Made by a program: the position numbers and the translations under genes. The notes beneath the pieces were generated by a model. The model was not told where the DNA came from. It was given only the letters and a program-made list of their open reading frames with translations, and searched no databases. Shown piece by piece: positions 9,323 to 32,000 of a stretch of DNA of 64,000 bases (position 1 is its first letter; every line of letters begins with the position of its first letter). Source of the stretch: a virus; IMG/VR virus record IMGVR_UViG_3300033145_002388, positions 8,132 through 72,131 of that record; one strand, written 5' to 3'.

Positions 9323-9583
9323 ATGAAATTATTTAAAGTAAAATTTAATTCTAGATTATTTGATGAAATGAAATTACAGAAAATTCTTGAAAGAAATTCT
9401 AATCTTAAATTAGATATTTCTAGGATTAAGAATATAACTTTACAAATTGATCCTGCTTATCGATCAGGTATTTTAATTTGTAAAAATAAAAATAAAGTCG
9501 AAGTAGTCAGAGAGCGATGTGTTCCAGTTGGTTTAGATGATATTGATAGTGATTTTGAATTGCTTTGTGAATATGAGGTATAA
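9323..9583 (+). CDS. Hypothetical protein
   Basis: ORF directly upstream of rtcB. Confidence 0.55.
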   Translation: MKLFKVKFNSRLFDEMKLQKILERNSNLKLDISRIKNITLQIDPAYRSGILICKNKNKVEVVRERCVPVGLDDIDSDFELLCEYEV

Positions 9584-9584
9584 T

Positions 9585-10772: not shown

Positions 10773-10773
10773 A

Positions 10774-12818: not shown

Positions 12819-14010
12819 AGAAAGATTTATGAAAGCAAAAATTCAAATGTTAGTTGATCAACCTTTCTTTGGACAGCTAGCTTCTTATTTAATTCCTATT
12901 GTAAATGATAAAATTTGTCCAACAATGGGTGTTAATCAATTGGGAGAATTATTTGTAAATTCTAAATGGGTTGATGCTTTAGCTTTTAATGAATTGAAAG
13001 GAGTTCTTATGCATGAAATATTACATTTAGCTTTCTTGCATCCTGTAAGATCAAAAGTTTTTGATAAGAAATTATATAATATTGCTGCTGATTTAAAAAT
13101 AAATGATTTGTTATTAAATGGAGAAAAATATAAAGTAAATTTGCCGAAGGATGGATTTCTTCCTAATTATAATCATAGTTGGGAAATGGATAAAATTAAA
13201 ATAGAAAAAATTGACGAGAAAACTACTGAACAAATTTATTATGAATTAGAAAAAGTTTATGAGACTTTGAAAGATAAAAAATATAGACAAGATTTAATAA
13301 TTGTTTCTGATAGAGATCAAAATAAGGAGTCTAAATCAGGATCTAAGTCACAATCAAAAAAGTATTCAGAAATTTCAGCAGAAAAATTACAACAAGCTAA
13401 AGATTTATGGACCGATAGAGTTAATTCAATTAAGATTCAAGGACTTTTACCAGGAGAAATTTCAAGAGCTTTAAATTCTTTAAGAGCGCATAAAATTACT
13501 TGGAATTCTTGGTTACACGGAAGATTTGCTCGATTAATTAAAGAAAGATCTTGGAGTCGTCCAAGTAAACGTTGGCTTCCTTGGTATTTTCCTGCTTCTA
13601 CTAAAGTTAAAGGCTTACGTTGTGTAATAGGAGTTGATACTTCAGGTTCAATTTCAGATAAAGAATATTCGGAAATTATTTCCGAACTTTATGGAATCTA
13701 TGTTGATTACAGAGGTGCTGTTGAAATGATTGTACTTGGTTGTGATTCTAAAGTACATAATGTTTATAATTTCAAAGATAATGAACAGGAGAAATTAAAG
13801 AAGATTAAAATGACTGGAGGAGGAGGAACAGATTTTCGTCCAGTATTTAATTGGATTAAAACAAAATTAAGACAACCAGTCGATTGTCTTATATATTTTA
13901 CAGATGGGTGTGGAAGTTTTCCTCAAAATTCTAATTTACCTTTTGAGGTGATTTGGGTTATTACTTCAAATATTGAGCCCCCATTTGGAAAAAGATTAAG
14001 TCTAAAATAA
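12811..14010 (+). CDS. DUF2201-type metallopeptidase + vWA domain protein
   Basis: PFFG...PTMGV...HEILH...NIAADLKIN; MIDAS GVDTSGSIS, GGGGTDFRPVF and YFTDG. Confidence 0.9.
   Translation: MNKERFMKAKIQMLVDQPFFGQLASYLIPIVNDKICPTMGVNQLGELFVNSKWVDALAFNELKGVLMHEILHLAFLHPVRSKVFDKKLYNIAADLKINDLLLNGEKYKVNLPKDGFLPNYNHSWEMDKIKIEKIDEKTTEQIYYELEKVYETLKDKKYRQDLIIVSDRDQNKESKSGSKSQSKKYSEISAEKLQQAKDLWTDRVNSIKIQGLLPGEISRALNSLRAHKITWNSWLHGRFARLIKERSWSRPSKRWLPWYFPASTKVKGLRCVIGVDTSGSISDKEYSEIISELYGIYVDYRGAVEMIVLGCDSKVHNVYNFKDNEQEKLKKIKMTGGGGTDFRPVFNWIKTKLRQPVDCLIYFTDGCGSFPQNSNLPFEVIWVITSNIEPPFGKRLSLK
13669..13685. repeat. 17-bp palindrome, copy 2 (TCGGAAATTATTTCCGA)
   Basis: Inside the vWA gene, encodes SEIISE; extends to a 19-bp palindrome. 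Confidence 0.9.
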
Positions 14011-15271: not shown

Positions 15272-16234
15272 ATGGAAAAAAATATCTTTGAAGAAGCAGA
15301 TAAATCATTAAAGAAGATTATTAAACTACAACAATCTGATTTTAAATTAAGAGTAAAATTAATAGAAACTATTTCGAATCATCCAGTAATTAAACTAATG
15401 AGTAGAGTTCAGAAAATAATCTGGAATGAATCTAATAATATGGATTATCTGGTTAGATCAATTCCATATCCTCTTAGGGTTCCCTTAGTTGTAGTAAAAA
15501 GTTCTATTTCTAATTATAATAATCTTAAAAATCCTATTTTTCATAGAAACTTTGGAATAAAAGGTAAGTCATCTTATGATTCTTTTAATCAATTTAGTTT
15601 ATTAATTGAAAGTTCTAAGCTTATTAAAGATAATCAGCTTTTTCTTAATTCAGAGGATTTGATTATAGATTTAGAACCTGCTTTATATTCTGCTAAAAAA
15701 ATTAATCATAGTAATTTAGATTTATTAATAACTTTAATTAAACATTTTAATTCTGATTATAAAATGTATTGGGAGTTTCCTTTTAAATGTGAAAATGAAA
15801 TGGGATTTTTAAAGTTTGATTTTTCTAGATCATTATCATTAAAATCTGGTGAACCAACTCTTAATTTAGAATTTGGTTCTAAGGTTTCCAGTAATTATCG
15901 AAATAAAATAGGATTTTTTGATTTCTTTGGTTATTCTATATCAAGAATCTGTAGAGGAATTTTAGGTAATGGATATTCTCTTTCTTCTTCTGATTATTTT
16001 TCAATTGATTATCGTTATGAATTAAATATTAAAAAGAAAATTGATGATTTTGAAAGATTAGAAAAATATGAAACTCAACTTAGAGGATTCCTAAGTAAAT
16101 GGAATGAAATTGATAAAAGTCTTAATGATTTTTATAGATCAAATAAATTTAAATTTGATTTGATTTTATCAGATTATGAAAAGTTTACTAAAAAAATTAA
16201 GTCTTATGAATTATTACAGAAATTAAAAAAATGA
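15272..16234 (+). CDS. Hypothetical protein
   Basis: 320-aa ORF; no motif recognised. Confidence 0.65.
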   Translation: MEKNIFEEADKSLKKIIKLQQSDFKLRVKLIETISNHPVIKLMSRVQKIIWNESNNMDYLVRSIPYPLRVPLVVVKSSISNYNNLKNPIFHRNFGIKGKSSYDSFNQFSLLIESSKLIKDNQLFLNSEDLIIDLEPALYSAKKINHSNLDLLITLIKHFNSDYKMYWEFPFKCENEMGFLKFDFSRSLSLKSGEPTLNLEFGSKVSSNYRNKIGFFDFFGYSISRICRGILGNGYSLSSSDYFSIDYRYELNIKKKIDDFERLEKYETQLRGFLSKWNEIDKSLNDFYRSNKFKFDLILSDYEKFTKKIKSYELLQKLKK

Positions 16235-16734
16235 TAAATAAAATTAAAAACTTTTCTTTACAAAGTTTAAATTTACCTAGTTACTTTGATGTAGTAAAAA
16301 GTCTTTTAACGTATGAAGAATCTGATTGTTGGAGTATTAATCATGAATTAGTTTTTGGTTATAAAAAGAATTCTAAAAAGAGTTGGGAAGAAATACAATT
16401 AATTATTGCGCATGAAATTATGCATTTAATTCTTTTGCATCCTTTTATTAAAAAACCTGATTGTGAATTTCTGTTTCAGAAAGCTTGTGATTATGTTGTG
16501 AATGGAATGTTAATTAATAAATATGGCTTAAAGGATTTAAAGAAATATGCAATATATAAACCTGATGAAAAATGGAATGTTAAGGAATGTAATAAATTGA
16601 TTTGTATTAAAAATTTATCAAGTATTGAATTATTTTTTAAATTTTGTAAACTTAATAATAGAAAAGAATTCAAGATAGATTTTTTAATTTTAGAAATGGC
16701 TAATTTTATTTCTCAATGTAAAGAAAAAGTTTAG
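16231..16734 (+). CDS. Stand-alone DUF2201_N-like HExxH metallopeptidase
   Basis: IIAHEIMHLILLHP...QKACDYVVN parallels VLMHEILHLAFLHP...NIAADLKIN in 12811..14010. Confidence 0.7.
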   Translation: MINKIKNFSLQSLNLPSYFDVVKSLLTYEESDCWSINHELVFGYKKNSKKSWEEIQLIIAHEIMHLILLHPFIKKPDCEFLFQKACDYVVNGMLINKYGLKDLKKYAIYKPDEKWNVKECNKLICIKNLSSIELFFKFCKLNNRKEFKIDFLILEMANFISQCKEKV

Positions 16735-17130: not shown

Positions 17131-17429
17131 TTACTCAATTAAAGGAGGTAAAAAAAGAAGAGATTAAAAAACCATCGGTAGTAATTCCCCCTTTAGATTC
17201 AGAGAAAAAAGAAAAATCAAACTGTTATCAAGATTATCCTCATATAAAAACATTAGGAAGATTTAGTAAATTTATTATTATTAGTTGTTCTTTATCTATA
17301 TTTTTTTTAGCAGGGACAATTTTTATTTCAAATTTAAATACTGCTTTAAGTTTTAAAATAATTTCGGTAATCACTTTATTTTTATTTGTATTTGATCTTT
17401 TACATTCTTATAAATTCTTTTTTAAATAA
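17127..17429 (+). CDS. Two-TM membrane protein
   Basis: Two hydrophobic segments in the C-terminal half. Confidence 0.6.
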   Translation: MITQLKEVKKEEIKKPSVVIPPLDSEKKEKSNCYQDYPHIKTLGRFSKFIIISCSLSIFFLAGTIFISNLNTALSFKIISVITLFLFVFDLLHSYKFFFK

Positions 17430-17430
17430 T

Positions 17431-19053
17431 ATGAATAGATTGAAAAAAAAAGATACTGCCATTTTTAAATGGTTAGACGATACTGGTATTTTAACTGATA
17501 GGGGAATGCCATTTGAATTTAAAGATCATGCTTTTATTAGGGACTTATTTAGTAATTTCAACAAAAAAATTGTAGTTAAAAAATGTTCTCAGATTGGTGT
17601 TTCATTAGCATTACTTTGTAAGATTCTTTATTTATCTGATGTAATGGCAAAAAGAACTTCAACTCTTTATACTTTACCAACTGATGATGATGTTAAAGAT
17701 TTTGTTAGAACTAAATTTGATCCGATTGTTTTAGGTTCTAATCTTAGTAGATTTGCTGAAGGTGTTAGAAAAGAAGATAAAGTTTATTCTATTCAATTAA
17801 AAAAGATTGCTGATTCATTCTTTTATTTTAGAGGTTCAAGGTCAATGTCTAGAGCTTTAAGTGTTTCAATTGATATCTGGATAGGAGACGAATGGGATTA
17901 TCAGGAACAGGGAATTAAAGAAATGTATACCGAAAGATTAAAAGGTTCGGATTCTTTAAGAATAAATTGGATGGTAGGTAATCCTACAATTCCTAATTAT
18001 GGAATAGCAAAAGAGTTTGAAGATTCAACTCAGAATTATTGGTATGTTACTTGTCCTATTTGCAAGCATGTTCAACGTTTGGTTTGGCCAGACTCAATTG
18101 ATAAGGAAAGAAAAACATTTGTATGTCGTAGCTGTAATCGTCCACTTTCAGATGATGATAGAAGAAAAGGATTTTGGAAACCCGTTTATCCCGATAGAGA
18201 AATGGTAGGTTATTCTTTTAATCGTTTAATGGCTCCATGGTTTTCTGCACAAGATATTTTAGATGATTTTCAAAATAAAAAGAAGGAAAATTTTTATAGA
18301 TTTGTTTTGGGTGAAGCTTATGAAGGAAGTGGGATTGATGTTAAGTCTAAATTTAAAACCTTTTTGACTGATTCTAAATTAAAAGAAGGAAAACGGATTA
18401 TGGGTATAGACCAAGGAGATAAATTTTTTGTGACTAGCGGGATTGCCGGAAAGTCATTTAGGATTATAGATTATAATGCTGAAACTGAATTGCCTGCTGA
18501 TATTAATGATATGATTTCGACATTAAAACCTGATTTAATTGTAATGGATGCGCTTCCAAATAAACATTTAGGGAGGATTTTTCAAAAGCAATATAGTAAA
18601 ACTAAATTCCTTTTGGCTAATGAAAGAGATAGATCTCTAAAAGTTTCTGAACCAATAATAGTTGATTATAAAACTGGAATTGTTAGCGCAGACAGGACTA
18701 TGATTTTAGATGATATGTTTGAAACTTTAGAGAAAGGAATTTTAAAAATAAATAAAAGCGTTTCTCATCAAGATCTTTTTAAAAAGCATCTTGGAAATAT
18801 AATACCAGAGGAAAAAGAAGTTAATGGGAGTTTTAAAAGAAGATATAAGAAAATAGGTGAGGATCATTATGCATTTGCTTTATCATTTTTTACTATTGGT
18901 GCATCACTTTTAATGCCAATTAAAATTGAAAAAAAGGAAATTAAAAAAGAGGAAGAAAAGAAAGTAAAAACTTTTATGGAAGATCCCGATTTCATAAAAG
19001 CATTAAGAAGAAACAAAGATTCTGAATCGTGGGATTTAATTAAAGAGATTTAA
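17431..19053 (+). CDS. terL: Terminase large subunit, lambda GpA-like ATPase
   Basis: KKCSQIGVS Walker A variant, IWIGDEWD Walker B, GNPTIP, zinc ribbon CPIC...CRSC, VLGEAY and nuclease IMGIDQG. Confidence 0.9.
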   Translation: MNRLKKKDTAIFKWLDDTGILTDRGMPFEFKDHAFIRDLFSNFNKKIVVKKCSQIGVSLALLCKILYLSDVMAKRTSTLYTLPTDDDVKDFVRTKFDPIVLGSNLSRFAEGVRKEDKVYSIQLKKIADSFFYFRGSRSMSRALSVSIDIWIGDEWDYQEQGIKEMYTERLKGSDSLRINWMVGNPTIPNYGIAKEFEDSTQNYWYVTCPICKHVQRLVWPDSIDKERKTFVCRSCNRPLSDDDRRKGFWKPVYPDREMVGYSFNRLMAPWFSAQDILDDFQNKKKENFYRFVLGEAYEGSGIDVKSKFKTFLTDSKLKEGKRIMGIDQGDKFFVTSGIAGKSFRIIDYNAETELPADINDMISTLKPDLIVMDALPNKHLGRIFQKQYSKTKFLLANERDRSLKVSEPIIVDYKTGIVSADRTMILDDMFETLEKGILKINKSVSHQDLFKKHLGNIIPEEKEVNGSFKRRYKKIGEDHYAFALSFFTIGASLLMPIKIEKKEIKKEEEKKVKTFMEDPDFIKALRRNKDSESWDLIKEI

Positions 19054-19057
19054 ATTT

Positions 19058-22000
19058 ATGGAGATTAAAGATTTCTCAAGTCAAATTAGTGCAGCTCATG
19101 AAGTTCATAATAATTTTTTGACTGCAACTGAAAAAAATATTTCTTATTTTTTTTGGGGTAAAGATCAGGAAATTATTTCTTATAATCAGGGAAGATATGC
19201 ATATGGAGATTTTATTAGTTCTATGGAATCAGTTACTCCTTCTGCATTTAATTCTTGTTTAATTCCTTTACAAGTAATGTTTCAAGAAATGGGAAATACG
19301 ATGATATCTGTTAAGGTTGATCCAGTTGGCGCAATACGAAAAATTAAAGGAAGTGAAGAGTTTGCGAATATGCTTTCAAAAAAACTTTCTGATCTCTTTA
19401 AAAATTTTTCTTCATTGGGACTTTCTTCATTATTTGAAATGATAAATCATTCTTACTCGGTTTTTTATTTAGATCCGATATTGAAAAGATTTTATTCTTT
19501 ATCAGCTTCAGATTTTATTCCTGGGAATCCGGAGATAGCCAATATTCAAGATCAGCCTTTTTTAATTCGTTTAACTTTTCCATCCAAGGCTGATCTATTA
19601 AAAGGAATTGCTTCTCCAGCTTCAGATCCCAGAGTTAACAGTAAAGTTTATTCTGATATTCAAAAATTAGAAGATTGTACTTCAATTAGAATTCAAGATC
19701 TATGGAGTAAAGATTTAAATTCTAGAATTTTAACTGTTCCAACTGGAGAAGTTTTATTTAAAGATCAGTTTCCCGAACCTTTTATTTATCCTTTTTTTAA
19801 AGTCAATGAATCTTTAAGTCAATCTCAGTTTTATGCTTTGCCTTTAATGAGTAAAGCCATTCCTTTAATGGAAAAATATAAAAAGATAACCTTGTCAATT
19901 GATCATGCTTCTCATGCTCAAGCTAGAGCTTTGTTAGTCTATGACAAGGAAGCACAGATAGATATCAATAGACTTAAATCTGAGCTTCAAGAAGGAGATA
20001 AAAATATTATTGTGGGTAAAAGTGAAATAGGAGATATTAGTTATAAACAACCAGCACAGCTTCCTGAGTATGTTTTAATCCATCAACAAAATTTACTTAA
20101 TCAAATTTTACAATTATTTGGAACTGGTTCAATTGCAAGGGTTGGATCAGTTCGTGAGAAAGGTGCAGTAGAAGCTATGATTAGAGCATCACTTCGTCAA
20201 TTTGTTTTTTATTCAAATCGAATTAAAGATGCGTTAGAAAACTTAGCTGATTATTATTTAAAATATATACAGACTCATCGATTACAATTTATAAAAGAAT
20301 TTGATTCACTTTCATCTTCTGTTTTAAGAGAAGGAACTTTTAAATCTACTATAGAATTACTTCCTTCTTCTTCTTCCAGGACTATGATGGAACAAACATT
20401 TATTTTAAGGAAAAGAAAAGAAGGCCTGATTTCTAGAAAACAATCATTAAAAGAATTAGGTTATCCCAATCCAAATAGAATTAGAGATGAAATAGAAACT
20501 GAGATGCTTGAGCAAAGAGACTTAGCAGAAAAATTAAAACAACAACCTTTAAGTCTTAATCAAAAGATTTCTCAAACTCTTTCATCAGTTTTGGATTATA
20601 CTCCTGATATTATTTTATCTGGTTCAGACAAAGCGGTTGTTCAAGTCAAAGAAAAAGATGTTGAAAAAACTAGATTTCTTTTATCTGATTTGGAAGAGAG
20701 AATTTATATAGATGGAACTAGATCTGAAAGTGCTCCAAATATTATAGAGTCTGAACCAAAACCGGAAATAATTTCCGAACCTAAAAAAGAAAAGGAAATT
20801 GAAAAGCCAGAACAAAAAGAAGAAGTAAAAAAAGAAAGTTCAATTGTAAAAAAATCTTCGCAGGCTCCAGAAGTTTCTAAATTTAAACAGATTTTAGAAA
20901 AACTTATTGAATTATCTAAGATGGGAATTAAAAAGGAATCGGTTGGAAAGTTTATTCAAAAATATCCTGGACTTTATTTAGTAGATCCCCATGCTCCAGA
21001 TATTTATTCTGGAAAAAAATTAATGATTATCAAGTCTCGTTTATTTGATATTATAGATAAACCTCAAATATTACTTGGTTCTAAATATGCTTATGGAATT
21101 TTAATTCCTAGAATAGTATTTAAGATTGGGCCTAAGCGATTTAAAGAAACTGAAAAGTATCATTTAATTTCTGATGAACAAAGAAAAAAATGGTGGGATG
21201 AAAAGACTTTATATGGATACTTATTTGAGTTTCACAAATTTGAAGAACCAGTTGAATGGGAAAGGAAACCTGGTATTAAAAATTTTGTAAAAGCTCCTAT
21301 TCCTTTACGAACAGAACATACTGGAGTTCCTTATACTGGAGATTTAAAACCAGTTTCTTTAAGTCCTTTTAAGCTTCCTCCTCCAGCTAAACCAGAAAAG
21401 AAAGCTTTTCAACCTTATGAAATTTTTTCTCCTGCTAGATTAAAAGAAATTATTCCTGCTGGAACTTATAATGTTTCAGAAAAAATAGATGGAATAAGAA
21501 CTTTTTGTTGGAAAGATAATGAAACTATAAAGTTTTTTACTGATACGGGAAATGAAATTAATGCACAAAAATTAATTTTGGTAGCCGATTCAATTCGTAA
21601 TTTATTCAAAACTCAAAGTGTTTTATTAGATGGTGAACTTTCTTTAAAAGGAGTTAAACATGAAAATGTTACAGGTTTTATTCATAAAAAATCTCCTGTT
21701 TCAAATGAAGAAAAAAAAGCTTTAGAGTTTGTGGTCTGGGATATTCTTTATCTTAATGGAAAATCTTTAGCTGATAAACCTTTTATAGATAGATATAGAT
21801 TACTTAATTTAAAAATTAAACCCGGACAGACAAAAGGAAAAATTCGTAGAGTAAAAACTACTAATGCTTCTCGAGATCAGTTAGCTAAAGCTAGTAAATT
21901 AGTAACTTCTAATGAAGGAGTAGTTATTAGAGATATTGATGCTGCTTATTGGGCAACTCATTCTATGTATAAATGTGCTCATGGTGATACTTATATCTTT

Positions 22001-23395
22001 ACAGATCGTGGAATGGTAAGAGCAAAGAATATAAAGGCTGATGATAAAATTTTAAATGGTCAAGGAAAATTTGTGGGAATTAAAAACATAATGAAAAGAA
22101 AAGTAACTTCATTAGATAAAATAATGGAACTAAAAACTTTTGGAACTTTCCCTGTTAAATTTACTTCTGATCATTTAATTAAATCAGGCAAAAAATGGAT
22201 TGAATTGGATAAACTTAGGTTTAAAAGGGGGGCTTTAAGAGAAAATTATGTTAGAAAAGCTAATGACTTTTTAAGTCTTCCTATTTATAAGCGATTAAAA
22301 GGAAAAATTAAAAGTATTAAATTAAGCAGAGTTCCAAAGTATGAAAAGGAAATAAAACTTTCAAAAGATTTTTGGTGGCTAGTTGGATTAATTTTAGCAG
22401 AGGGAAGTTGGAATAAGTCTGTATTTATATCTAACAAAAATTTATCTCTTTTAAAGAAAGCTCAACAGATAGCGATCCAGACCCTGGGAATAGAAGAAGG
22501 AAAAATTATTAAGATGAAGAATGATTGTTATGTTTTAACTATATTTGATATGGGATTTGCTAACTGGCTTGCTCAAAATTTCTCACAAGGAAAAAGAAAT
22601 GGTTGGCATATAGGACATACTAAAATTCTCCCCCAGTTTATAGATTATTTAACTAAAGAGGAATTTCAATCTTTATTTGATGGATGGTGGATAGGAGATA
22701 AAGGATGTTCTATTGATAATCCATTAATTATGAAATTCTATTTATTAGGAAGAAGCCATGGAATGCCTTTAAGTATAAGCTTTTATGATTCTAAATATAA
22801 GAACAAGTCTTTCATTTATTGGAAAATTAGAATTCTAGATAAAATGTATAAGAAAAATTGGGGACGAATTAGATCTATTGTTACTTATAATAAGCATTCA
22901 GAATTTCTTTATGACTTTGAATTAGAGGGTGAATGTCCAGAAATTGCTTCTGCTATAATAGTTCATAATTGCAAGAAAACAGCTGATTTAGATGTTAAGG
23001 TTATAGCTGTGGAAAAAACTAAAAATAATCTTCCTATTTTTCATTGTGTTTTGAGAGATGGAACTTATATGGGACAAACTTATGCACAAGGAGAAGTAAA
23101 GGCCAAGCCAGGTGACACCATTAGAGTTATGGTTGATCACTTTACTTTAAGACCAGATGGAGCTTTGGGTTGGTTTGCGCCTCGTCCTAAAGATATAAAA
23201 GGAAAACTTGGGGCTACAACTTCTTTAAAACAAAAGGGAATTTCTGGACCTGATACTTTAGCATTTGTTAAGGAACATTATCTTTCTCATGGTGGCACTG
23301 AGGCGACCTGGAAAGAATGGTTGCCTAAACATGCTGCTTGGAAGGTCAAAGAAAATAAAAGATTAATTGCTAATGTTAAAAAAGTTTATGGCTAA
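19058..23395 (+). CDS. Portal protein fused to an ASCH-like domain and an intein-containing ATP-dependent ligase
   Basis: Directly after terL; aa ~1-495 portal-like (FYALPLMSKAIPL; GLISRKQSLKELGYPNPNRIRDEIETE). P/E/K-rich linker. aa ~638-745 ASCH-like (GLYLVDPHAPDIYSGKKLMIIKSR). Ligase motifs SEKIDG (K809), LLDGEL, FVVWDILY, EGVVIR and YK|CK, followed by an OB-fold-like region. Confidence 0.8.
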   Translation: MEIKDFSSQISAAHEVHNNFLTATEKNISYFFWGKDQEIISYNQGRYAYGDFISSMESVTPSAFNSCLIPLQVMFQEMGNTMISVKVDPVGAIRKIKGSEEFANMLSKKLSDLFKNFSSLGLSSLFEMINHSYSVFYLDPILKRFYSLSASDFIPGNPEIANIQDQPFLIRLTFPSKADLLKGIASPASDPRVNSKVYSDIQKLEDCTSIRIQDLWSKDLNSRILTVPTGEVLFKDQFPEPFIYPFFKVNESLSQSQFYALPLMSKAIPLMEKYKKITLSIDHASHAQARALLVYDKEAQIDINRLKSELQEGDKNIIVGKSEIGDISYKQPAQLPEYVLIHQQNLLNQILQLFGTGSIARVGSVREKGAVEAMIRASLRQFVFYSNRIKDALENLADYYLKYIQTHRLQFIKEFDSLSSSVLREGTFKSTIELLPSSSSRTMMEQTFILRKRKEGLISRKQSLKELGYPNPNRIRDEIETEMLEQRDLAEKLKQQPLSLNQKISQTLSSVLDYTPDIILSGSDKAVVQVKEKDVEKTRFLLSDLEERIYIDGTRSESAPNIIESEPKPEIISEPKKEKEIEKPEQKEEVKKESSIVKKSSQAPEVSKFKQILEKLIELSKMGIKKESVGKFIQKYPGLYLVDPHAPDIYSGKKLMIIKSRLFDIIDKPQILLGSKYAYGILIPRIVFKIGPKRFKETEKYHLISDEQRKKWWDEKTLYGYLFEFHKFEEPVEWERKPGIKNFVKAPIPLRTEHTGVPYTGDLKPVSLSPFKLPPPAKPEKKAFQPYEIFSPARLKEIIPAGTYNVSEKIDGIRTFCWKDNETIKFFTDTGNEINAQKLILVADSIRNLFKTQSVLLDGELSLKGVKHENVTGFIHKKSPVSNEEKKALEFVVWDILYLNGKSLADKPFIDRYRLLNLKIKPGQTKGKIRRVKTTNASRDQLAKASKLVTSNEGVVIRDIDAAYWATHSMYKCAHGDTYIFTDRGMVRAKNIKADDKILNGQGKFVGIKNIMKRKVTSLDKIMELKTFGTFPVKFTSDHLIKSGKKWIELDKLRFKRGALRENYVRKANDFLSLPIYKRLKGKIKSIKLSRVPKYEKEIKLSKDFWWLVGLILAEGSWNKSVFISNKNLSLLKKAQQIAIQTLGIEEGKIIKMKNDCYVLTIFDMGFANWLAQNFSQGKRNGWHIGHTKILPQFIDYLTKEEFQSLFDGWWIGDKGCSIDNPLIMKFYLLGRSHGMPLSISFYDSKYKNKSFIYWKIRILDKMYKKNWGRIRSIVTYNKHSEFLYDFELEGECPEIASAIIVHNCKKTADLDVKVIAVEKTKNNLPIFHCVLRDGTYMGQTYAQGEVKAKPGDTIRVMVDHFTLRPDGALGWFAPRPKDIKGKLGATTSLKQKGISGPDTLAFVKEHYLSHGGTEATWKEWLPKHAAWKVKENKRLIANVKKVYG
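20762..20778. repeat. 17-bp palindrome, copy 3 (CCGGAAATAATTTCCGA, one mismatch)
   Basis: In the portal-ASCH linker; encodes PEIISE. Confidence 0.85.
21974..22969 (+). mobile_element. Intein (332 aa) with LAGLIDADG homing endonuclease, inserted in ligase motif V
   Basis: N-terminal C(AHGDTYIFT), block B FTSDH, LAGLIDADG-like WLVGLILAEGS and SLFDGWWIGDK, block F LYDFEL, C-terminal VHN followed by Cys(+1). Splicing restores MYK-CKKTADLDVKV. Confidence 0.92.
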
Positions 23396-24062
23396 TTATA
23401 CTAAATTTTATATCAAAGGAGAACGAGATGGAAAACCAACTCGTATCTTCGAATCCAATCTTAATAAAGCTATTAAAGCTGCTAGAAAAATTGGAATGAA
23501 ACCAACCTCTAAAGATGCTTATGGCTATGATGCAAAAAAAAAGAAATGGGTTCCTCTGTTAAAGGCTTCAGATCCTCGTAGAGCAACTGCTAAATCTTTT
23601 GCTATAAAGGATTATTTTGATAAGATAGCAAATCCTCGTAGCGTAACTGCTAAATCTTTATTGAAAAAAACTCCAGTCTTATTAAAGAAACAATATGAAA
23701 AAAAAGATTTAATTAAAAGTAGAGGAAAAAAAACTTCTAAGTATTTGATGCCAATTGTTAAATTAATGGGTGAAAAAATTAAAACGGCTAAGTCAGAGAC
23801 TGAAGCTAATCAAGCACGTAAAGCATTATTAAAAAGATTTTCTAAAGATTTGCCATCTACAATAATGGGAAGGAAAAATTATAATACTGCGGTTAAGAAT
23901 ATTGATAATTACTTAAAGAAAGGAAATTATGTAGGAGCCTCTAATTATATGGTAGGACAATTGTTTAAATTAGAAAATCAATTAAGGGGAACCGGAAGTT
24001 ATAAATATGTGGCAGACAAACTTGGTGATTGGTATGGAACTCATTTAAAATTTGATGAATAA
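23388..24062 (+). CDS. Highly basic protein, possibly a DNA-binding core protein
   Basis: Lys/Ala-rich; internal 60-nt-period duplication DPRRATAKSF / NPRSVTAKSL (23572 and 23632). Confidence 0.6.
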   Translation: MANYTKFYIKGERDGKPTRIFESNLNKAIKAARKIGMKPTSKDAYGYDAKKKKWVPLLKASDPRRATAKSFAIKDYFDKIANPRSVTAKSLLKKTPVLLKKQYEKKDLIKSRGKKTSKYLMPIVKLMGEKIKTAKSETEANQARKALLKRFSKDLPSTIMGRKNYNTAVKNIDNYLKKGNYVGASNYMVGQLFKLENQLRGTGSYKYVADKLGDWYGTHLKFDE

Positions 24063-24063
24063 T

Positions 24064-24378
24064 ATGAATAAAAAAATTTTTCTCCTCACTTCTGTAGTGA
24101 GAAGGTTAGCAAATTTAAAAGGAAATAGAGATAAGATTTTTGTAGTGGGAGGATTGGTTACTCAGGGAAGATCTAGTCATGATATTGATATCTGTATTAA
24201 AGATCAAAAAGATATTCCAATTGTTAAAGATATTCTTGGTCCTTATCATAAAGATGTACATTTTTCAATTCTCAAAGGTAATCGGCCCAGTTCTAAAATT
24301 TATCTTACAATTGATAAAAAAAATTTAGAATTGGGATCTAAAGGAATGTATAATGAAAATAGAAACAATAAAACCTAA
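24064..24378 (+). CDS. Minimal Pol-beta-superfamily nucleotidyltransferase
   Basis: KIFVVGGLVTQGRSSHDIDICI fits hG[GS]-x(n)-DhDh. Confidence 0.75.
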   Translation: MNKKIFLLTSVVRRLANLKGNRDKIFVVGGLVTQGRSSHDIDICIKDQKDIPIVKDILGPYHKDVHFSILKGNRPSSKIYLTIDKKNLELGSKGMYNENRNNKT

Positions 24379-25270
24379 AAGTGGAACTCATTTTAAAACT
24401 TATAAAGGAACAAAAAGAATACCAACTAAAGCAGAGTTTTTGAGACGAGCTTTAAAGAAAGCTCACGGACCTTTAGATGTCCATGAAGAATGGATTGAGT
24501 TTATTCCTGGAAAATTTACTGTTCAATTACATGGATGGTTTGATGAGGGAAGTTATGGAAAGGGAAAAGAAGCCTTGACAAAAATTCAGTCAATTGTTAA
24601 GATGGCATTGAAGAATCATGAAGATCCAATTATTCATTTAACTAAAGGAAAGTTTCATTATGATATTAGAATTTTAAAAAAGGGATCCTTAACTTGGTTT
24701 GGTTTTACAACATTTAGGTTGCCGTGGACTGGAACTCTTGAAGATAAAGTGATGGGAACCGTTAAAGGCTATCAGTCCTTAGTTAAAGGATCTAAAGCTC
24801 TTAATAAATTTTTAAGAGAGAAAGCTGAAATTGCTTTGACTAAAGAAGGAACCGCTGAAAGAAGAGATCGTCCTAAATGGCTTAGAATTAAAGCAGAATA
24901 TTGGAAACCTCCTGGGATTGGAACCCCCAGTGGACAACCGGGAATAATGATTGCATTAGAATCTTTACAACCTTGTATAGTTCACAGAAGAGAATTAGAT
25001 TTTTTAGATATAACTTTTATAGGAAAATATTTTAATGGAAGATATTTTGATAGATTAGTAGAAAGAAAAATAGCTAAAAAATTTATTCTTGGATTTTATT
25101 TATGGCGAGCAAAGAAAGCTTTTGATATTTCTAAAATGAAAAATATTAGTATTGGAAAACAAAAGCATGAACCAATTGAAGTTAGATTTCAAGATAATTA
25201 TTTAAAGATTCAATCTCCTTTAAAGCCTTCATGGAAATTTAAACGCGGGGGGAAAATCTTAACAACATAA
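24353..25270 (+). CDS. LigD-type 3'-phosphoesterase (LigD_N/PE)-like protein
   Basis: FTVQLH...HYDIRI (metal ligands H, H, D plus R) and C-terminal ITFIGKYFNGRY strand motif; ~40-aa insert between the two His motifs. Confidence 0.7.
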   Translation: MKIETIKPKSGTHFKTYKGTKRIPTKAEFLRRALKKAHGPLDVHEEWIEFIPGKFTVQLHGWFDEGSYGKGKEALTKIQSIVKMALKNHEDPIIHLTKGKFHYDIRILKKGSLTWFGFTTFRLPWTGTLEDKVMGTVKGYQSLVKGSKALNKFLREKAEIALTKEGTAERRDRPKWLRIKAEYWKPPGIGTPSGQPGIMIALESLQPCIVHRRELDFLDITFIGKYFNGRYFDRLVERKIAKKFILGFYLWRAKKAFDISKMKNISIGKQKHEPIEVRFQDNYLKIQSPLKPSWKFKRGGKILTT

Positions 25271-25291
25271 CTAATTTACTAATTAAATTTT

Positions 25292-25540
25292 ATGGCTAAA
25301 ATTACTTTGGTTTGTCCTAAATGCGGAGCGAAGGTTAACGTTGAACCTGAGAAAGCAAAAGGACTTAAATGTGCTAAATGTGGGGTTGCATTATTGACTC
25401 CCGAAAAAGCTGCGGTTTATGCTAAAGCATATGCTGCTGCAAAAAAAAGAAAAAAAAGAAGAACTGCGGCTGGTAGTTTAATTAAGAAAACTTTGCCAGC
25501 TAACTATGGTTATGGTGGAGAAAAAGAAGAATCAAAATAA
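25292..25540 (+). CDS. Small basic zinc-ribbon protein
   Basis: CPKC...CAKC, then KKRKKRR. Confidence 0.7.
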   Translation: MAKITLVCPKCGAKVNVEPEKAKGLKCAKCGVALLTPEKAAVYAKAYAAAKKRKKRRTAAGSLIKKTLPANYGYGGEKEESK

Positions 25541-25561
25541 TTAATTAATTAATTTTATTTT

Positions 25562-26353
25562 ATGAAAATTAAATTTGGGGAAAAAAAAGATCCTGAAAAT
25601 ACAGAAAATAAAGATGTTAAAGAAACTGAAACTATAGATTCTGATAATGTGAAAGAAAAAGATTCTACAGAAATTAAAGAAGATCCTATAAAAACAGTAG
25701 TTGAAACTGTTAGAAATATTCAAAAATCTGTAGAAGAAATAAAAGAATCTAATTCTGGGTTGAAGTCTAGACTTGATTTATTTGAAGAAGAAAAAGAAGA
25801 ATCATTTAATTCTTCTGGTGATGATTTATTTAATGAAGCTGAAAAAGAAGTTGTTGAGGAAGAAAAAATTAAATCTGAACCAATTGAGTCTGATAAAAAA
25901 GAAGATGGAATTGATGAAGCAATTAAACAAGATCAAGATTTTAGAGATTCAATTACTGAAAAGCAAAAGAAAATTATTGAAAGACAGGAAATGATTGAAA
26001 AAAAAATTGATGAAGATAATTTGAATAGAGAAGTTAATGAAGCAATAAAAGAATTTCCTTCTATTAACAAAACTGATATTTTAAGAGAAATTGAAAATGA
26101 TCCAAGTAAAACAGCATCTGAGATTGCAGAATCTTTAGATGCGCAACGTATAAAAGATCGCGCTGCTATGCGTGATGAGATAAAAAAGGAAATAGAAGAA
26201 GAGCTTACTAAAGAGCAAAAAGGAAATGTCTCTGTACCTCAAGCTTCTGGTTCCTCTAATCCCAACTCTTCTACTCAAAATCCAGCTGAACCTGAGGGCG
26301 ATCCTTGGGAAGAAGCTAGGAATAAAGCTAAGTCGGAGATAACAGAAGAGTAA
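25562..26353 (+). CDS. Capsid scaffolding protein
   Basis: Very acidic coiled coil with a short C-terminal helix after a flexible linker; immediately upstream of the major capsid gene. Confidence 0.75.
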   Translation: MKIKFGEKKDPENTENKDVKETETIDSDNVKEKDSTEIKEDPIKTVVETVRNIQKSVEEIKESNSGLKSRLDLFEEEKEESFNSSGDDLFNEAEKEVVEEEKIKSEPIESDKKEDGIDEAIKQDQDFRDSITEKQKKIIERQEMIEKKIDEDNLNREVNEAIKEFPSINKTDILREIENDPSKTASEIAESLDAQRIKDRAAMRDEIKKEIEEELTKEQKGNVSVPQASGSSNPNSSTQNPAEPEGDPWEEARNKAKSEITEE

Positions 26354-26381
26354 TTGTTTAATTAAAACTTTATAGTCTTGT

Positions 26382-27371
26382 ATGTCCTTAATAGCTGAAC
26401 TTAATTCTGCGACTTTAAAGTATTATTCTCCGGTAGTCGTTGATCAGATCTTTAAATATTCTCCTTTACTCTATCGCATTTTTAAAATTGCGAAAGAAGG
26501 TAATTGGGGGATGGCTCAGACAACTAGTGGTGGACGAAAAATTGCTGAACCCCTTGAATATCAAGAAGCTGCGCAAGCCAGTAATTCTCATGGTTCTTAT
26601 GATTCAAGTGATACTTGGGCTGCTGATGATCAAGATGTATTGACTCTAGCTGAATACAGTTGGAAGCAATATCATTCAACCATCAAAATTCCAAATCTCA
26701 CTGTTTCAGAGAATGCTGGTAAAGCTAGAATTTTTGATATTGCTGCAATCAAGTTGAAGAATGCTGCTAAAACTTTGAGAAAAGATTTGGCAACTGATCT
26801 TTTTGGAGATAATACTGGTGAAAGTGGAAAAAATATTTTAGGCTTACAAGCACTAGTCGCTGCAACAGGTACTGTTGGTGGAATTGATAAAAGTAGTTAT
26901 TCTTGGTGGCAGGGAAAGGTAAATACAACTGGCGGAATTCTTGACTGGTCGATCTTAAATGATCTCTATGTTGGGACAAAACGCTATGGTGATGGAGTTC
27001 CTCTTTCTATTATTGTATGCTCAGATGGAGTTATGCAAAAATATGAAGATACTTATTCCAAAGTTGTGTCTGCTACTAATTCAGGAGTTAGATTAACCCT
27101 AGGTAGTAAAGTTTTAGATGGTGGTTTTCGCGCTTTTTCTTTTAAAGGTATTCCAATCGTAAGTGATCCATTCTGTGGTTCTGGGCTTTTGTTCGGATTA
27201 ACAGAACAATTCTTGCATGCTAGAATTTTAAAACAATTCGGAACCCAAGGTTGGAAATCAATTGAAGATCAAGGCAAAGATTATCTTCAAGCAACTTATA
27301 AAGGTTATTTGGCCTTTACTTCAAGTTGTGCTAGAAAGCAGTCAATGGCTAGTGGCTTGACAGAAGCATAG
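26382..27371 (+). CDS. Major capsid protein (HK97 fold)
   Basis: LKYYSPVVVDQIF, GGRKIAEPLEY, AEYSWKQY, GGIDKSSYSWWQ and GFRAFSFKGIPIVSDPFC; followed by a strong terminator. Confidence 0.88.
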   Translation: MSLIAELNSATLKYYSPVVVDQIFKYSPLLYRIFKIAKEGNWGMAQTTSGGRKIAEPLEYQEAAQASNSHGSYDSSDTWAADDQDVLTLAEYSWKQYHSTIKIPNLTVSENAGKARIFDIAAIKLKNAAKTLRKDLATDLFGDNTGESGKNILGLQALVAATGTVGGIDKSSYSWWQGKVNTTGGILDWSILNDLYVGTKRYGDGVPLSIIVCSDGVMQKYEDTYSKVVSATNSGVRLTLGSKVLDGGFRAFSFKGIPIVSDPFCGSGLLFGLTEQFLHARILKQFGTQGWKSIEDQGKDYLQATYKGYLAFTSSCARKQSMASGLTEA

Positions 27372-27389
27372 ACATAATCTGAATTTGAT

Positions 27390-27427
27390 AAGGAGACAAG
27401 ACTTTATGTACTTGTCTCCTTTGTTTT
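27390..27427 (+). terminator. Intrinsic terminator after the major capsid gene
   Basis: AAGGAGACAAG / CTTGTCTCCTT stem followed by TGTTTT. Confidence 0.85.
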
Positions 27428-27910
27428 ATGAAAAGAAAAAATTATTGTTATATAACTTGGTATCATCCAAATTTAAAGAATAGACAAGATCTATTAAACT
27501 TAAAAAATTTATTTGTTCTTTTTCAAAATAATCATCAGAGTTTAGTTAATTTTAAATGTAAAAAATTTTTAACTTTAATAGAGGATAAATCTGTAGCTAT
27601 GAATACTCTTATGAATTATTTAAAGGAACAATATTTTTGGGCTATTATATTTCATCCTAATGTTAAAGTTGATTTATCAAAAGTAGAATTTCCTAAAGTT
27701 TCCAGAGTTTTTTATTCTAATGGTTTAGATTGGCAAAATTTTTCTCGAGAATTTAATGCATTACATTTTGCATTTGTTACTAGAACACAAGGTTTTTTGC
27801 CATGGAATTCATTTAAATTTCAATCTGATTCACAAGATAGTTTAATAACTTCAATTAAATATTCTAAGATGGCTAAGAGAATAGATCCATTTTGGAAATT
27901 AATTAATTAA
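27428..27910 (+). CDS. Hypothetical protein
   Basis: ORF only. Confidence 0.55.
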   Translation: MKRKNYCYITWYHPNLKNRQDLLNLKNLFVLFQNNHQSLVNFKCKKFLTLIEDKSVAMNTLMNYLKEQYFWAIIFHPNVKVDLSKVEFPKVSRVFYSNGLDWQNFSREFNALHFAFVTRTQGFLPWNSFKFQSDSQDSLITSIKYSKMAKRIDPFWKLIN

Positions 27911-28381: not shown

Positions 28382-29049
28382 GAGGTTCATATGAAATTGT
28401 TCTTTATATAGACGAAGATAAATTTTATATAAAGAGATGGATTAAATGTTTTCATAATATTCGATATTTAAGTATTAAAGAAAGGATTAAATATATTAGA
28501 TCTTGGGGGACTCCATCAATTAGTATTCTATTTAAGAATGCAGATTTAAATAGATTTAGTTGGATAATAAGAAAGTATAAATTTTATCCTAGTTATGTTA
28601 GAATTTATTTTGGGGTTACTTTAGCAGATTTTATAACAGATAAATTATTTAGTCCTCGAACCAAAGCAATTTTATTTATTCAAGCTCCAGTAAAATTTGC
28701 TAGTTCAAATCAGGATAGTCTAATTAAAGCTTCTCATTTTTTTTCTTGTATAATGTTTCCATTATTTAGAAGAAATTGGAGAAGTGCTAAATCTAAATAT
28801 CCCGAGCTTGACGCAATTTATAATGGTGGTAAGATAGATAATGATAATTGTTTTGAAGAAGTAGGAAAGAAATTAGGATTATCTTGTTGTTATTTTCAAT
28901 CTGATTATAAAAAATTAATTCCAAAAAAACCATATTGTTTTGCAATTTGTAGAAGTGAATTAAAAAATTTAAAGTTAAATCTAGATGGTACTATAACACC
29001 AACTAAAAATAAAAGAGTTTTACTAGATAATTTTTATGACGTTATTTAA
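28378..29049 (+). CDS. Hypothetical protein
   Basis: ORF overlapping both neighbours. Confidence 0.55.
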   Translation: MRGSYEIVLYIDEDKFYIKRWIKCFHNIRYLSIKERIKYIRSWGTPSISILFKNADLNRFSWIIRKYKFYPSYVRIYFGVTLADFITDKLFSPRTKAILFIQAPVKFASSNQDSLIKASHFFSCIMFPLFRRNWRSAKSKYPELDAIYNGGKIDNDNCFEEVGKKLGLSCCYFQSDYKKLIPKKPYCFAICRSELKNLKLNLDGTITPTKNKRVLLDNFYDVI

Positions 29050-32000
29050 GTTGTTTAAAGAACAAAACTTGAGTCTACCTTCAGTAGAAAGAAGGAAACA
29101 GCTATACTCAAGATATAAGCTAGGCACAGATTATAAAGGATCTTTTGAACAGAATACTTTACTTTCTAAAGCTATTAAAAAAGATCCAAGAGAATTTAAT
29201 ATTTTTGTTAATGCTTTAAAGTTTCCTTTAGCTCCAACTATAATTAAATCATCTCCTGTTAAGTCTAAAGTTAAATCTGTAGCAAAACTAGAACCTGTAA
29301 AGATTTCTAAATCCTTAAAGAAAGAATCATTTGAATATGATCGTTTGACTCCTGGTAAAACCGTAGGAGATTGGCTTAAAGCAAAGAAAATAAAATTTGA
29401 GGACTTTCAAAAACTTAATCCCGCTTATAAAACCCAGGATTTTAAAGTTGAGAGTCCTTTTAAAGTTAAGATTCCTAAATTAGATTCTGTTTTAATTAAA
29501 GAATTTCCAAAAGTAAAAGAAATTCTTGATAAAAAATCAGGAGAAATTAAAGATCCTGCTGATATTCAGAAGATTTTAAGACAATCAATATCCAATTTAT
29601 TAATAGGTGGCATTAAAGCATTGCCAGAAATTATTGTTAAGGGAAAAAATTTACTTCCAGCTTATACTAAAAATATTTCTGAGGGTATTAAACAAACTAA
29701 AATATCTGTTGATAAAAAAAATTTAGCTACTGATCTTGGTCAAAAAGAAAAAGCTTATGCTGCTAATTGGGATCCTGTTAAAATATTAGACACAACAGCG
29801 AAAACTGTTATTTCTTTGTCAGTTATGAAGAAAGGTTTCCGACCGATTTCCAGTGATTTAATTTCATTAATTAAAAAATCACAAAAATTAAAATTAAAGG
29901 AAAAGCAAGAAAAAGAAAGAAAATTAGTAATTCCTTCCGTTGAAGATTTTTTAGCTGGGGAAAAAATAGATTTATCTTCAGAAGAAAAAAAGATTATTAC
30001 TAAACCAAAAGAAGAAAATGAAAGTCCAGAATATACTACTGCTAGATTAAAAAATATTATTTCTAAATTAGATTCTATTAAAAAAGATATTCAATTACAA
30101 CAATCAAATTTAAAAGCCGAAGATAGTTCCATTATTGGCCTTATTAACAAGGAGGGAAAATTTTTACCTTGGGAAACTTTAGAAAAAGATACAGGATTGG
30201 CAAAAAATCTTCAATCTGAAATAGAAGCAATGAGTAAAAAAATTGGTCCTGCTACTAATAGAATGCAAGAGAATACTAATGAATCTATTAAGTGGCAAAA
30301 TATTCTTTTTAAAAATTTAGATAAATATTCTGATGTTATATTTAATTTAATTTCAGATCCAGAAGTTATAAAGGATCCAACAATTTTAACAAAGGTTCAG
30401 ACATGGTTTCCAAATCGTGAAAGTTTTTTATTGGGAGTAACTAAATCTCCCACTGATGTTTTGGTTTCTACGCCTGAAGTTAAGAAATTACAAAAAGAAA
30501 TGGAGAGTCTTTTAACACCAGAGATGAAAGAAATTATTGATAATGCTTCTAAATTAGATCCTGAAAATGATGAACAAGCTGATAAATTTTGGTTAGGATT
30601 AAGTTTGGATCAACAAAAATCCTATCAGAGATTAATGACTCTGAATCGTTTAATTGGGGAAAAAGATGATGCAACCAAACTTCAAAAAACCTGGGCTTTA
30701 TTAGAAGATCCTTATTTTCAAAAAACAATTTTAGAAAGTGCTAAATATTTATCTGAAGATCAAAAGAAAATTATCCAGCCTGTTATAGAAATTGCTAAGT
30801 TAAATGCAGAAAGAACTATCTTATGGCCAAAAGTAGATAATGAAATGAAATCTCAAACAGAAGAAATAAAAAATAAATATACTGAGTATCAAAAATTAGT
30901 TGAAGGAATTAATCAAAGAATAGTAGCTTTGGGTGATCCTAAAAAACAGGGCACACTTGCTCATTGGTTAGTTGATTACGGTGATGCTATTCATGAGTAT
31001 CAAAAAAGTTTATTAAAAGCTGAACTTAAGTCAGAAAAAAAAGTTGCTGAATTTCAGGATGCATATATTGAAGCTAGAAGTTTTAAATCTGTATCTAGGA
31101 ATTTCATGAATGCAATTACTTCTTTCTTGAAGAATCATAGTTGGGAAATAAAAGCTGAAGATGAAAAAGGTTTCTTTTTAAAACTTAGAAAAAGTCAAGA
31201 AGAAATTTTAGCCAAGGATAAATTAAAAATAATGAGTCAAGTTGTTTTTCCTACTGGTTTTAAAAATTATTTTATAGAAGGAGGCTATAAATATGATCTT
31301 CCTATAGCCATTACTCCAATTGGATATGAAGTCACAAAGAATGCTTTTTCTGGATTACAATGGATCTGGGATAGAACCTTGCCAGCTGCTGAGGTTGCTG
31401 TTACTGCTTTATCTCAAATAGGTTCAACTTTTTATCAAACAGTTTTAGAAGAAACGGGGGATTTGTGGGGTATGGAAAGAAAAAAAGTAGAAGAGTTAAC
31501 TACAATTGGAGAATTTCCTTTTAAAGAAAAAAATTTAGTAAGTAAATTATGGAATTTAAATTGTTTTAATTTTTTTAATTTATATGATGCTGCCAATTTA
31601 ACTGATTTACAAAAGATTGCACCTGGTAAACGATTTGAAATTCAAAATCTTCCTAAATGGATAGATTTAAAAAAGGGCGGTTATCTTCCAACTCTTTATT
31701 CAAATTATAGACATCCTCGTTCTTATCAAGAAATTATGATAAAAAGCAGAATGAAAGCAGTTGAGGTTTTACCTTCTGAATTTAAAATTATTCAAGAAGA
31801 ATTTTTAAGCTTAAATAATCTGAACAAGGATAGTGTTCTTAGTATTGGCGATAGGATTTTAATTCCAACTCAGGGTTATATTGCGCCTAGAAATTTAATT
31901 AAACCTAATGAAAGAACAAAAATGGAGCAAACATCAGATGGTAGATTAGCTTTGCTTGCAATAGATTTTATAGGATGGGGCTTTCTTGACCCTACTTCAA

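Follow-up and report, generated by a model that had tools for sequence, protein, structure and literature searches.

A Phage Portal Protein Fused to an ASCH-Like Domain and an ATP-Dependent DNA Ligase: A Putative Virion-Loaded DNA End-Sealing Kit

Introduction

Why would a phage attach a DNA ligase to the protein that forms the DNA gate of its head? This question is raised by a single open reading frame (ORF) of 1445 amino acids (aa), found at positions 19058-23395 on the plus strand of the window analyzed here. The window, a stretch of 64,000 nucleotides, corresponds to bases 8132-72131 of the linear 72,131-bp virus record IMGVR_UViG_3300033145_002388 from IMG/VR, for which CheckV estimates a completeness of 73%. 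The GC content of the window is 0.29, and all positions below refer to the window unless a locus is named. A preliminary description, made from the sequence alone, had read this ORF as a portal protein joined through a linker rich in Pro, Glu, and Lys to an ASCH/PUA-like domain and a complete ligase. Our best reading, to which a probability of about 0.55 is assigned, is that the ORF encodes the core of a putative DNA end-sealing kit loaded into the virion.

The Portal Domain

The ORF begins 5 nt past the stop codon of terL (17386-19053, plus strand), which encodes a large terminase subunit of the gpA type (PF05876 GpA_ATPase, E = 7.2e-24; phrog_675, E = 1e-84). The assignment of one uninterrupted 1445-aa frame to the portal slot was thus correct. 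The same gene order is found in related loci: among the loci with this type of portal, herein referred to as lineage 1, the portal gene follows terL in all nine that are full-length (L001-L009).

The portal part is poorly visible to sequence comparison. Residues 1-560 matched no Pfam family and no PHROG portal family. The phmmer search of the portal part against PDB sequences returned only chance matches to ribosomal protein S13 (E ≥ 0.16), and no match was found by tblastn in 50,697 GenBank phage records. A single relative, P0010, matches the Pfam family SU10_portal (E = 7.8e-4), with a score of 18.4 bits that lies below the cut-off of 30.

Structure comparison gave a consistent answer. The portal structure was predicted with AlphaFold2 (AF2) from an alignment of 16 family members, with a mean pLDDT of 77.8 and a pTM of 0.68. 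In a Foldseek search against PDB, this model had 192 matches at E ≤ 0.001, the best being the Pan3 portal (E = 6e-14). Among the PDB matches listed, all were portals or portal-containing complexes, including those of Pan3, LME-1, T7, Kp9, KHP30, N4, SU10, SPP1, and others, with TM scores of 0.37-0.51 over about 420-710 columns. In BFVD, 325 matches were found at E ≤ 0.001 (best E = 1e-17), and the named ones were portals or head-to-tail connectors, save a few entries labeled "uncharacterized" or "virion related." The domain, as modeled, covers aa 1-555 (19058-20722, plus strand) and ends in a small conserved α/β unit (residues ~515-555) that follows the crown helices.

The portal-like character noticed in the N-terminal part is therefore borne out by fold, and no competing candidate was found: the portal families PF05136, PF05133, PF04860, and PF23899 have no matches at E ≤ 10 in the window or elsewhere in the whole 72,131-bp record, within its 73% completeness. 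On the strength of the structural model, the N-terminal part of the ORF is the real and only portal of this phage.

Compared with the solved portals of tailed phages (Pan3, LME-1, T7 gp8, N4, SU10, KHP30, and SPP1 gp6), the protein has the same overall fold and the same place after terL. In this set, TM scores are 0.45-0.51 over about 500-600 aligned columns. In contrast to them, it carries ~890 additional C-terminal residues (558 after splicing, see below) and is missed by the Pfam and PHROG portal families.

The Ligase and Its Intein

The C-terminal part of the ORF matches PF01068 at aa 806-967 (E = 5.9e-19; 69 bits against a cut-off of 26.2, and 73.1 bits in the genome search). Foldseek returned 171 matches for this part at E ≤ 0.001, and among the matches listed all were ATP-dependent DNA ligases. 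A profile built from the ligase family found 37 PDB sequences at E ≤ 0.01, every one of them a DNA ligase. In GenBank phages, the only tblastn match to the ASCH and nucleotidyltransferase part was a Bacillus phage ligase with 28% identity. No other DNA-ligase match was found in the record.

The ligase signature is preserved in full. Motifs I, III, IIIa, IV, and V of ligases can all be recognized, and residues K809, D811, G812, G859, E860, D895, E953, G954, R958, K972, and K1306 are invariant in all 11 aligned ligase-bearing members. The lysine of the KxDG motif, K809, is encoded at 21482, where the preliminary description had placed it. A conserved N-terminal extension of 40 residues (aa 756-795) and the nucleotidyltransferase domain as far as the first motif V lysine (aa 796-972) occupy 21323-21973 on the plus strand. 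The remainder of motif V (C1305, K1306), an OB-fold domain, C-terminal helices, and the stop codon occupy 22970-23395 on the same strand and are conserved in 11 of 11 ligase-bearing members. In the model of residues 600-1445, the OB domain forms β-strands at model positions 702-774, followed by helices at 802-845, and the alignments with 3gde and 1vs0 extend into it. By sequence and model together, the protein thus contains a complete two-domain ATP-dependent DNA ligase, composed of a nucleotidyltransferase and an OB domain.

The two halves of motif V are separated by an intein of 332 aa, C973-N1304 (21974-22969, plus strand). It starts with Cys, ends with H1303-N1304, and is followed by C1305 as the +1 residue; both a Hint fold and a LAGLIDADG homing endonuclease were recognized in it. 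Inteins at the same site of motif V were found in the window, in L001, and in P0012. The 65%-identical protein of L005 has an empty site and an uninterrupted motif V, and this precise absence corroborates the suggestion that the region is spliced. The intein would have to be removed from motif V to yield an active protein, predicted at 1113 aa. In P0007 (1515 aa), motif V is free of inteins and it is motif I that an intein splits, separating the catalytic Lys from the Asp-Gly pair. Two intein insertion sites are therefore present across the ligase family, motif V and motif I, both in catalytic motifs.

Minimal viral ATP-dependent DNA ligases, such as those of Chlorella virus, T7, African swine fever virus (ASFV), and a Rhizobium phage, differ from this enzyme in several respects. 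The ligase described here is fused to a structural protein, has the conserved 40-aa N-terminal extension, is interrupted by an intein in motif V, and has a motif IV ending in Arg (R958) in 11 of 11 members.

The Tether and the ASCH-Like Domain

Portal and ligase are joined by two regions of very different character. The first, aa 556-605 (20723-20872, plus strand), is a low-complexity tether rich in Pro, Glu, and Lys, as its composition had indicated at the outset, and both its length and its sequence differ among relatives. The second, aa 606-755 (20873-21322, plus strand), consists of two helices and a PUA-like β-barrel that resembles ASCH domains.

Residues 600-1445 were modeled together, and the ASCH-like domain was matched within this 846-residue model, in which positions 6-150 mostly have pLDDT values above 90. 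An exhaustive structural comparison of model positions 36-154 (aa 635-753; 20960-21316) returned the ASCH fold, with no other fold among the matches listed. The aligned lengths were 118 of 143 residues for Zymomonas ASCH (5guq), 106 of 157 for mouse CXorf40A (6kir), and 92 of 102 for Escherichia coli YqfB (9kyf), so the fold is shared over most of the chain. The ASCH/PUA-like domain recognized earlier at 20969-21290 (aa 638-745) falls inside this match. The domain differs from known ASCH proteins in lying between a portal and a ligase and in escaping the ASCH family model PF04266, which has no match at E ≤ 1 in the protein and none at E ≤ 10 in the record. The Atlas gave one lead, ASCH being present on 16% of one neighboring cluster. 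Judged from the model, the ASCH assignment holds by fold and not by sequence family membership. The domain is found in all 11 lineage-1 loci covering the region, including three without a ligase.

Selection acts on these parts unequally. In the comparison of the window with L001, a single pair for which dS is near saturation, dN/dS was 0.17 for the portal, 0.62 for the linker, 0.06 for the ASCH-like domain, 0.04-0.14 for the ligase parts, and 0.04 for the 40-aa ligase extension. The linker evolves almost freely, and the portal, ASCH-like, and ligase domains are under purifying selection, the ASCH-like domain being among the most tightly constrained.

Recurrence of the Fusion in Related Loci

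A word-based protein search found six relatives of 1146-1515 aa, all with PF01068, and only 12 relatives emerged when 1.84 billion representatives were searched exhaustively. The family of portal-ASCH proteins with or without a ligase is rare. Viral and metagenomic contigs added at least 11 loci (L001-L011). All locus counts given here, including those for co-occurrence, rest on loci returned by two pattern scans and should be read as lower bounds. In total, at least 27 distinct proteins were tabulated (the L006 protein being the same as P0009): 17 lineage-1 proteins with portal, ASCH-like domain, and ligase; eight with portal and ASCH-like domain only; and two belonging to a second lineage. 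The ligase-less relatives (786-842 aa) end naturally right before the ligase module.

Homologs of the same architecture, a search for which the preliminary description had proposed, are thus provided by 17 distinct lineage-1 proteins with all three parts in one frame. The frame is continuous in L001, where the portal part is 73% identical and the intein is also present, as well as in L005-L009 and in 11 proteins of other origin found in the database. Since the same continuous frame occurs in independent samples, a chimera is excluded for practical purposes, and the sequences make it very unlikely that the frame results from misassembly or that the linker hides a stop. One of the 17, P0014 (1042 aa), carries Arg and Asn at the positions of the Lys and Asp of motif I and ends after motif V with no OB domain, the portal and ASCH-like parts being otherwise intact. 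To judge from its sequence, its ligase is apparently decayed or truncated.

A Second Portal-Ligase Lineage

The same ligase was also found on a different portal. In L019 and L021 (GC content 0.66-0.67), proteins of 983 and 963 aa have an N-terminal half matching the Pfam family SPP1_portal (30.1 and 42.2 bits, respectively, against a cut-off of 25.5), and the ligase forms their C-terminal part. This ligase is 38% identical to that of the window, the conserved 40-aa N-terminal extension included, and no similarity between the lineage-1 and lineage-2 portals is detectable by BLAST. In place of the ASCH-like domain, the lineage-2 proteins have a domain of ~100 aa homologous to a separate gene located downstream of the fusion in the window (24052-24378), whose product is herein referred to as P0021. 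In BLASTP, P0021 matched the lineage-2 proteins P0023 and P0024 with E = 3e-9 and 4e-10, respectively.

These comparisons suggest that the portal-ligase fusion arose independently in the second lineage. Because a homolog of P0021 is fused between portal and ligase there, gene 24052-24378 is connected to the ligase by a Rosetta-stone link. Moreover, the occurrence of one ligase on two unrelated portals, with the partner fused in one case and separate in the other, points to portal attachment, and hence loading into the particle, as the selected trait.

The Partner Genes P0021 and P0020

Two genes of the head module were found together with the ligase: that for P0021 (108 aa; 24052-24378, plus strand) and that for a 305-aa protein herein referred to as P0020 (24353-25270, plus strand), a member of a conserved family with no Pfam model. 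Homologs of P0021 are encoded by separate genes in L001, L005-L008, L010, L013, L014, and L017 and form a fused domain in L018-L021. Homologs of P0020 were found in L001, L005-L008, L014, L015, and L019-L022. Thus, both partners are present in five of the six full-length ligase-bearing lineage-1 loci and in lineage-2 loci. Neither was found in L002-L004, the three loci without a ligase, whose downstream sequence extends over about 9-10 kb in each case. This comparative pattern defines a three-part module.

In P0021, the residues G33-G34...D44-x-D46 are invariant in 11 of 11 members, an arrangement that we assume to be the GG...DxD pattern of the Pol-β superfamily. No Pfam family matched P0021, and the profile search of PDB gave only non-significant matches to an AbiEii nucleotidyltransferase (E = 0.67) and a CCA-type nucleotidyltransferase (E = 1.5), ranked behind spurious Kelch matches. 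From this pattern, P0021 is possibly a minimal nucleotidyltransferase. A complex prediction for the ligase module (residues 775-1126) and the GG...DxD protein of L005 gave a score of 0.00 and a mark of 0.32, which speak neither for nor against binding.

In the protein collection, the P0020 family is represented by 42 clusters, and a Pfam domain is absent from all of them. A possible relation to the 3'-phosphoesterase (PE) domain of bacterial DNA ligase D (LigD) was considered. PF13298 had no matches, phmmer against PDB and the Atlas were negative, the PDB profile search had no hits, and hhalign of P0020 with two LigD PE domains gave a probability of 0.8%. In BLASTP, the P0020 homolog of L019 matched two plasmid LigD proteins over 19-20 residues (E = 0.003 and 0.004) in the N-terminal part of the PE domain that is rich in His, Asp, and Arg, with a colinear second, weak stretch (E = 0.28 and 0.56); a third LigD (L027), which does not begin with a PE domain, was left out of this comparison. 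The resemblance of P0020 to the LigD PE is weak and suggestive only.

Two further observations concern P0020 homologs. The 627-aa homolog of L015 (L015:3081-4964) contains a LAGLIDADG-type intein-like insert within the invariant motif G-T-V-K-G-Y; as a third intein target in the module, this motif may be functionally critical. Another homolog, P0036, is encoded on a 94,673-bp contig filed by NCBI under candidate division WOR-3 bacterium, an assignment that may be a hint of the host or may reflect a phage contig binned into a metagenome-assembled genome.

The Proposed Function

The domain order suggests how the parts could work together. Portals are dodecamers, and in all solved portals the C-terminus, or crown, faces the capsid interior; up to twelve ligases would therefore lie inside the head. 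From the C-terminus of each portal subunit, the chain would continue through the disordered tether to the ASCH-type domain, expected to bind nucleic acid, and then to the ligase. In this way up to twelve ASCH-ligase units of ~63 kDa each would be built into every head and held flexibly, and the DNA gate of each particle would probably be equipped with up to twelve ligases.

In the proposed scheme, the ligase would be charged as ligase-AMP in the producer cell. An enzyme adenylated in the previous host could perform one ligation without ATP. At the start of the next infection, it would seal the annealed cohesive ends of the phage's own genome, as the gpA-type terminase suggests that the ends are cohesive, or it would mend broken ends. 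It might do so while tethered or after being clipped off and released. P0021 and P0020 would complete a conserved end-processing and sealing set of the head module. The sequence fits tethered, packaging-time, and clipped-and-ejected action equally.

A bolder version can be drawn from the same elements. The ligase, P0021, and P0020 might form a capsid-borne, Ku-independent, AMP-precharged machine that, while the DNA is leaving through the portal, trims the two genome ends there, fills them in, and joins them, or that keeps the two ends together at this site. Already at the very start of infection, the genome would in this case be a nuclease-proof circle, with no host enzyme involved, and the same solution would have been reached on two unrelated portal families. 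We regard this version as rather unlikely. Ku (PF02735) has no matches at E ≤ 10 in the 73%-complete record.

Several points weigh against the end-sealing proposal. The family has no cultured member, no match to the portal part being present in the 50,697 GenBank phage records, and retention of the C-terminal 558 residues in the virion is a prediction. One ligase-bearing locus, L009, has neither partner gene within 8 kb, and the identities of P0021 and P0020, as proposed from their sequences, are unproven. Among the 10 ORFs scanned in the surroundings of the head genes, none was recognized as a prohead protease, which makes clipping conjectural. Neither a portal nor a tail channel lets a folded ligase through; delivery would thus need release and unfolding, or the enzyme would have to act in or at the capsid. 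The degenerate motif I of P0014 and its end after motif V imply that the ligase can decay. Cohesive ends are deduced from the gpA-type terminase only, and no terminal repeats were found at the ends of the record, which is 73% complete. Finally, bacteria possess an NAD-dependent ligase of their own, so the need for a phage-borne one is not obvious.

Alternative Explanations

Among the alternatives, the tethered ligases could seal nicks during packaging, acting on DNA inside the procapsid or on the packaged genome, and never be delivered. Such a role would suit enzymes that the portal fold places near the crown where DNA enters, and twelve copies at the channel would be well placed to survey the passing DNA; neither a protease nor ejection would be needed. 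The eight members with portal and ASCH-like domain and no ligase also indicate that C-terminal cargo can be of use while staying inside the capsid. On general enzymological grounds, however, a capsid interior offers no ATP beyond the pre-adenylated enzyme, which limits each ligase to one turnover, and the co-varying partners that resemble end-processing enzymes suggest damaged ends rather than simple nicks. We consider a packaging-time role unlikely.

An equally unlikely alternative is that the portal serves as a loading anchor for an injected counter-defense effector of the polyvalent-protein kind. The cleaved ASCH-ligase and its partners would then reseal breaks made by host nucleases, not the natural ends. 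There are precedents in the text of an earlier survey, where a PBECR RNase, a 2H phosphoesterase, and an InPase fused to portal or MuF domains were predicted to be injected (Iyer et al., 2017; PMC5512222). The partner genes lie between portal and scaffold, the usual place of minor head proteins, and a putative DUF2201_N-like metallopeptidase is encoded just upstream (16231-16734). Judging by their family matches, either this protein or a second DUF2201_N-matching one (12799-14010) could be a processing peptidase. Nevertheless, neither a cleavage site nor a protease has been demonstrated, and the linker is not conserved. This explanation also overlaps largely with the end-sealing proposal, from which only the sealing target differs.

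The ligase might instead be an ordinary replication or repair enzyme, freed from the portal or active in the cytoplasm, with the fusion a matter of convenience and no role in the virion. As the only DNA ligase in the record, it might indeed serve replication as well. On the other hand, its presence on two portal families with no detectable similarity implies that the portal link itself is selected, expression with the late structural module suits replication poorly, and the eight portal-ASCH relatives without a ligase do not fit. This explanation is quite improbable.

Still less probable is a role in RNA repair, in which the ASCH-like domain would bind RNA and the ligase with its partners would heal and seal tRNAs or other RNAs cut by host anticodon nucleases. 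All sequence and fold matches of the ligase are to DNA ligases, and the phage has, by sequence, a separate RNA-repair capacity in an RtcB-type RNA ligase (9537-10772; phrog_1075, E = 8e-123). Finally, an artifact, either a chimeric assembly or read-through of separate portal and ligase genes, can be dismissed despite the metagenomic origin of the record, given the continuous frames in L001, L005-L009, and 11 database proteins and the purifying selection across the junctions.

Comparison with Known Systems

The protein has the architecture that defines polyvalent proteins, an enzymatic domain fused to a portal anchor in a terminase-portal phage (Iyer et al., 2017; PMC5512222). Portal- and MuF-fused enzymes predicted in that text to be packaged and injected include, besides the RNase, phosphoesterase, and InPase named above, a lysozyme. 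Polyvalent proteins likewise join an enzyme to a capsid-packaging anchor. Here, in contrast, the cargo is a DNA-sealing enzyme with an ASCH-like domain; "ligase" in the text of PMC5512222 refers to RNA ligases only, and "ASCH" occurs in it 0 times. No portal-ligase or portal-ASCH fusion was described in the literature searched; the supplementary architecture lists of PMC5512222 may contain one. The preliminary description was accordingly right that no characterized portal-ligase fusion is on record in that literature, but it left out that portal-fused enzymes are known as a class. New in this study are the second portal lineage, the fused-or-separate partner, the three-part pattern of presence and absence, the two intein sites, and the per-domain selection figures.

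The module may also be set beside bacterial LigD and non-homologous end joining (NHEJ), in which ligase, polymerase, and PE domains work with Ku. Here, no AEP-type (archaeo-eukaryotic primase) polymerase was seen, the search for Ku was negative as stated above, the PE link is unproven, and the parts are spread over the portal fusion and separate head-module genes. The mycobacteriophages Omega and Corndog reportedly use NHEJ for circularization.

Enzymes carried in particles include the virion RNA polymerase of N4, the core proteins of T7, and the virion Pol X and ligase of ASFV. They too are carried for the start of infection, but they are separate proteins and not portal fusions. To our knowledge, a DNA ligase has not been demonstrated in the virion of any phage. 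If the ligase does ride in the head, this phage would be the first known to have a DNA-joining enzyme in the particle, and its portal would plainly illustrate how such a ring can act as a loading dock for cargo that is large and folded (~63 kDa, twelve times). It would also raise the question of how incoming linear genomes survive and circularize, possibly independently of the host ligase. In addition, both the compact ligase and its two sites of intein insertion may attract practical interest as enzymes.

Neighboring Genes and Other Observations

All genes of the head region are located on the plus strand. The fusion is followed by a gene for a basic protein of 231 aa (23367-24062, plus strand) with no assigned family and no Pfam or PHROG match. 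Among the loci compared, its homologs were found only in the close relatives L001 and L005, with a 44-aa piece in L003. Downstream of the partner genes, an acidic 263-aa protein (25562-26353, plus strand) is the candidate scaffold, as suggested by its composition and its place before the major capsid protein (26382-27371, plus strand; phrog_9953, E = 1.5e-38).

Inteins and insertions are also present elsewhere in the head modules of relatives. The terL genes of L003 (7449-9959, 836 aa) and L004 (7434-9986, 850 aa), both of which are ligase-less, have an intein ahead of GpA_ATPase (PF14890, E = 9.5e-10 and 5.9e-6, respectively). In tblastn, the matches of the window's major capsid protein to L002, L003, L004, L008, and L009 were each broken into two or three segments, with gaps of 0.2-1.6 kb between them. 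From this pattern, several relatives seem to have capsid genes split by inteins, introns, or inserted genes.

No Shine-Dalgarno-like motif was found within 20 nt upstream of any of the nine gene starts inspected (17386-27428; GC content 23-36%), a hint that the host may use SD-independent initiation. Within the linker, no in-frame start is preceded by such a motif either; as real genes of this phage equally lack it, this observation is uninformative.

Upstream of terL, the RtcB gene is followed by an ORF of 178 aa with no known family (together 9537-11310). The region 11700-14010 encodes a MoxR-like AAA ATPase and then the protein with DUF2201_N metallopeptidase and VWA-like matches (12799-14010). 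The 167-aa ORF at 16231-16734, a partial DUF2201_N match, directly precedes the small ORFs that come before terL. For 12799-14010 and 16231-16734, the PHROG annotation as "HNH endonuclease" was rejected, because Pfam assigns them to DUF2201 metallopeptidase/VWA; consequently, no HNH argument is used here for cos packaging. Downstream of the head-completion genes, a single ORF of 4577 aa (29036-42769) takes up a fifth of the window.

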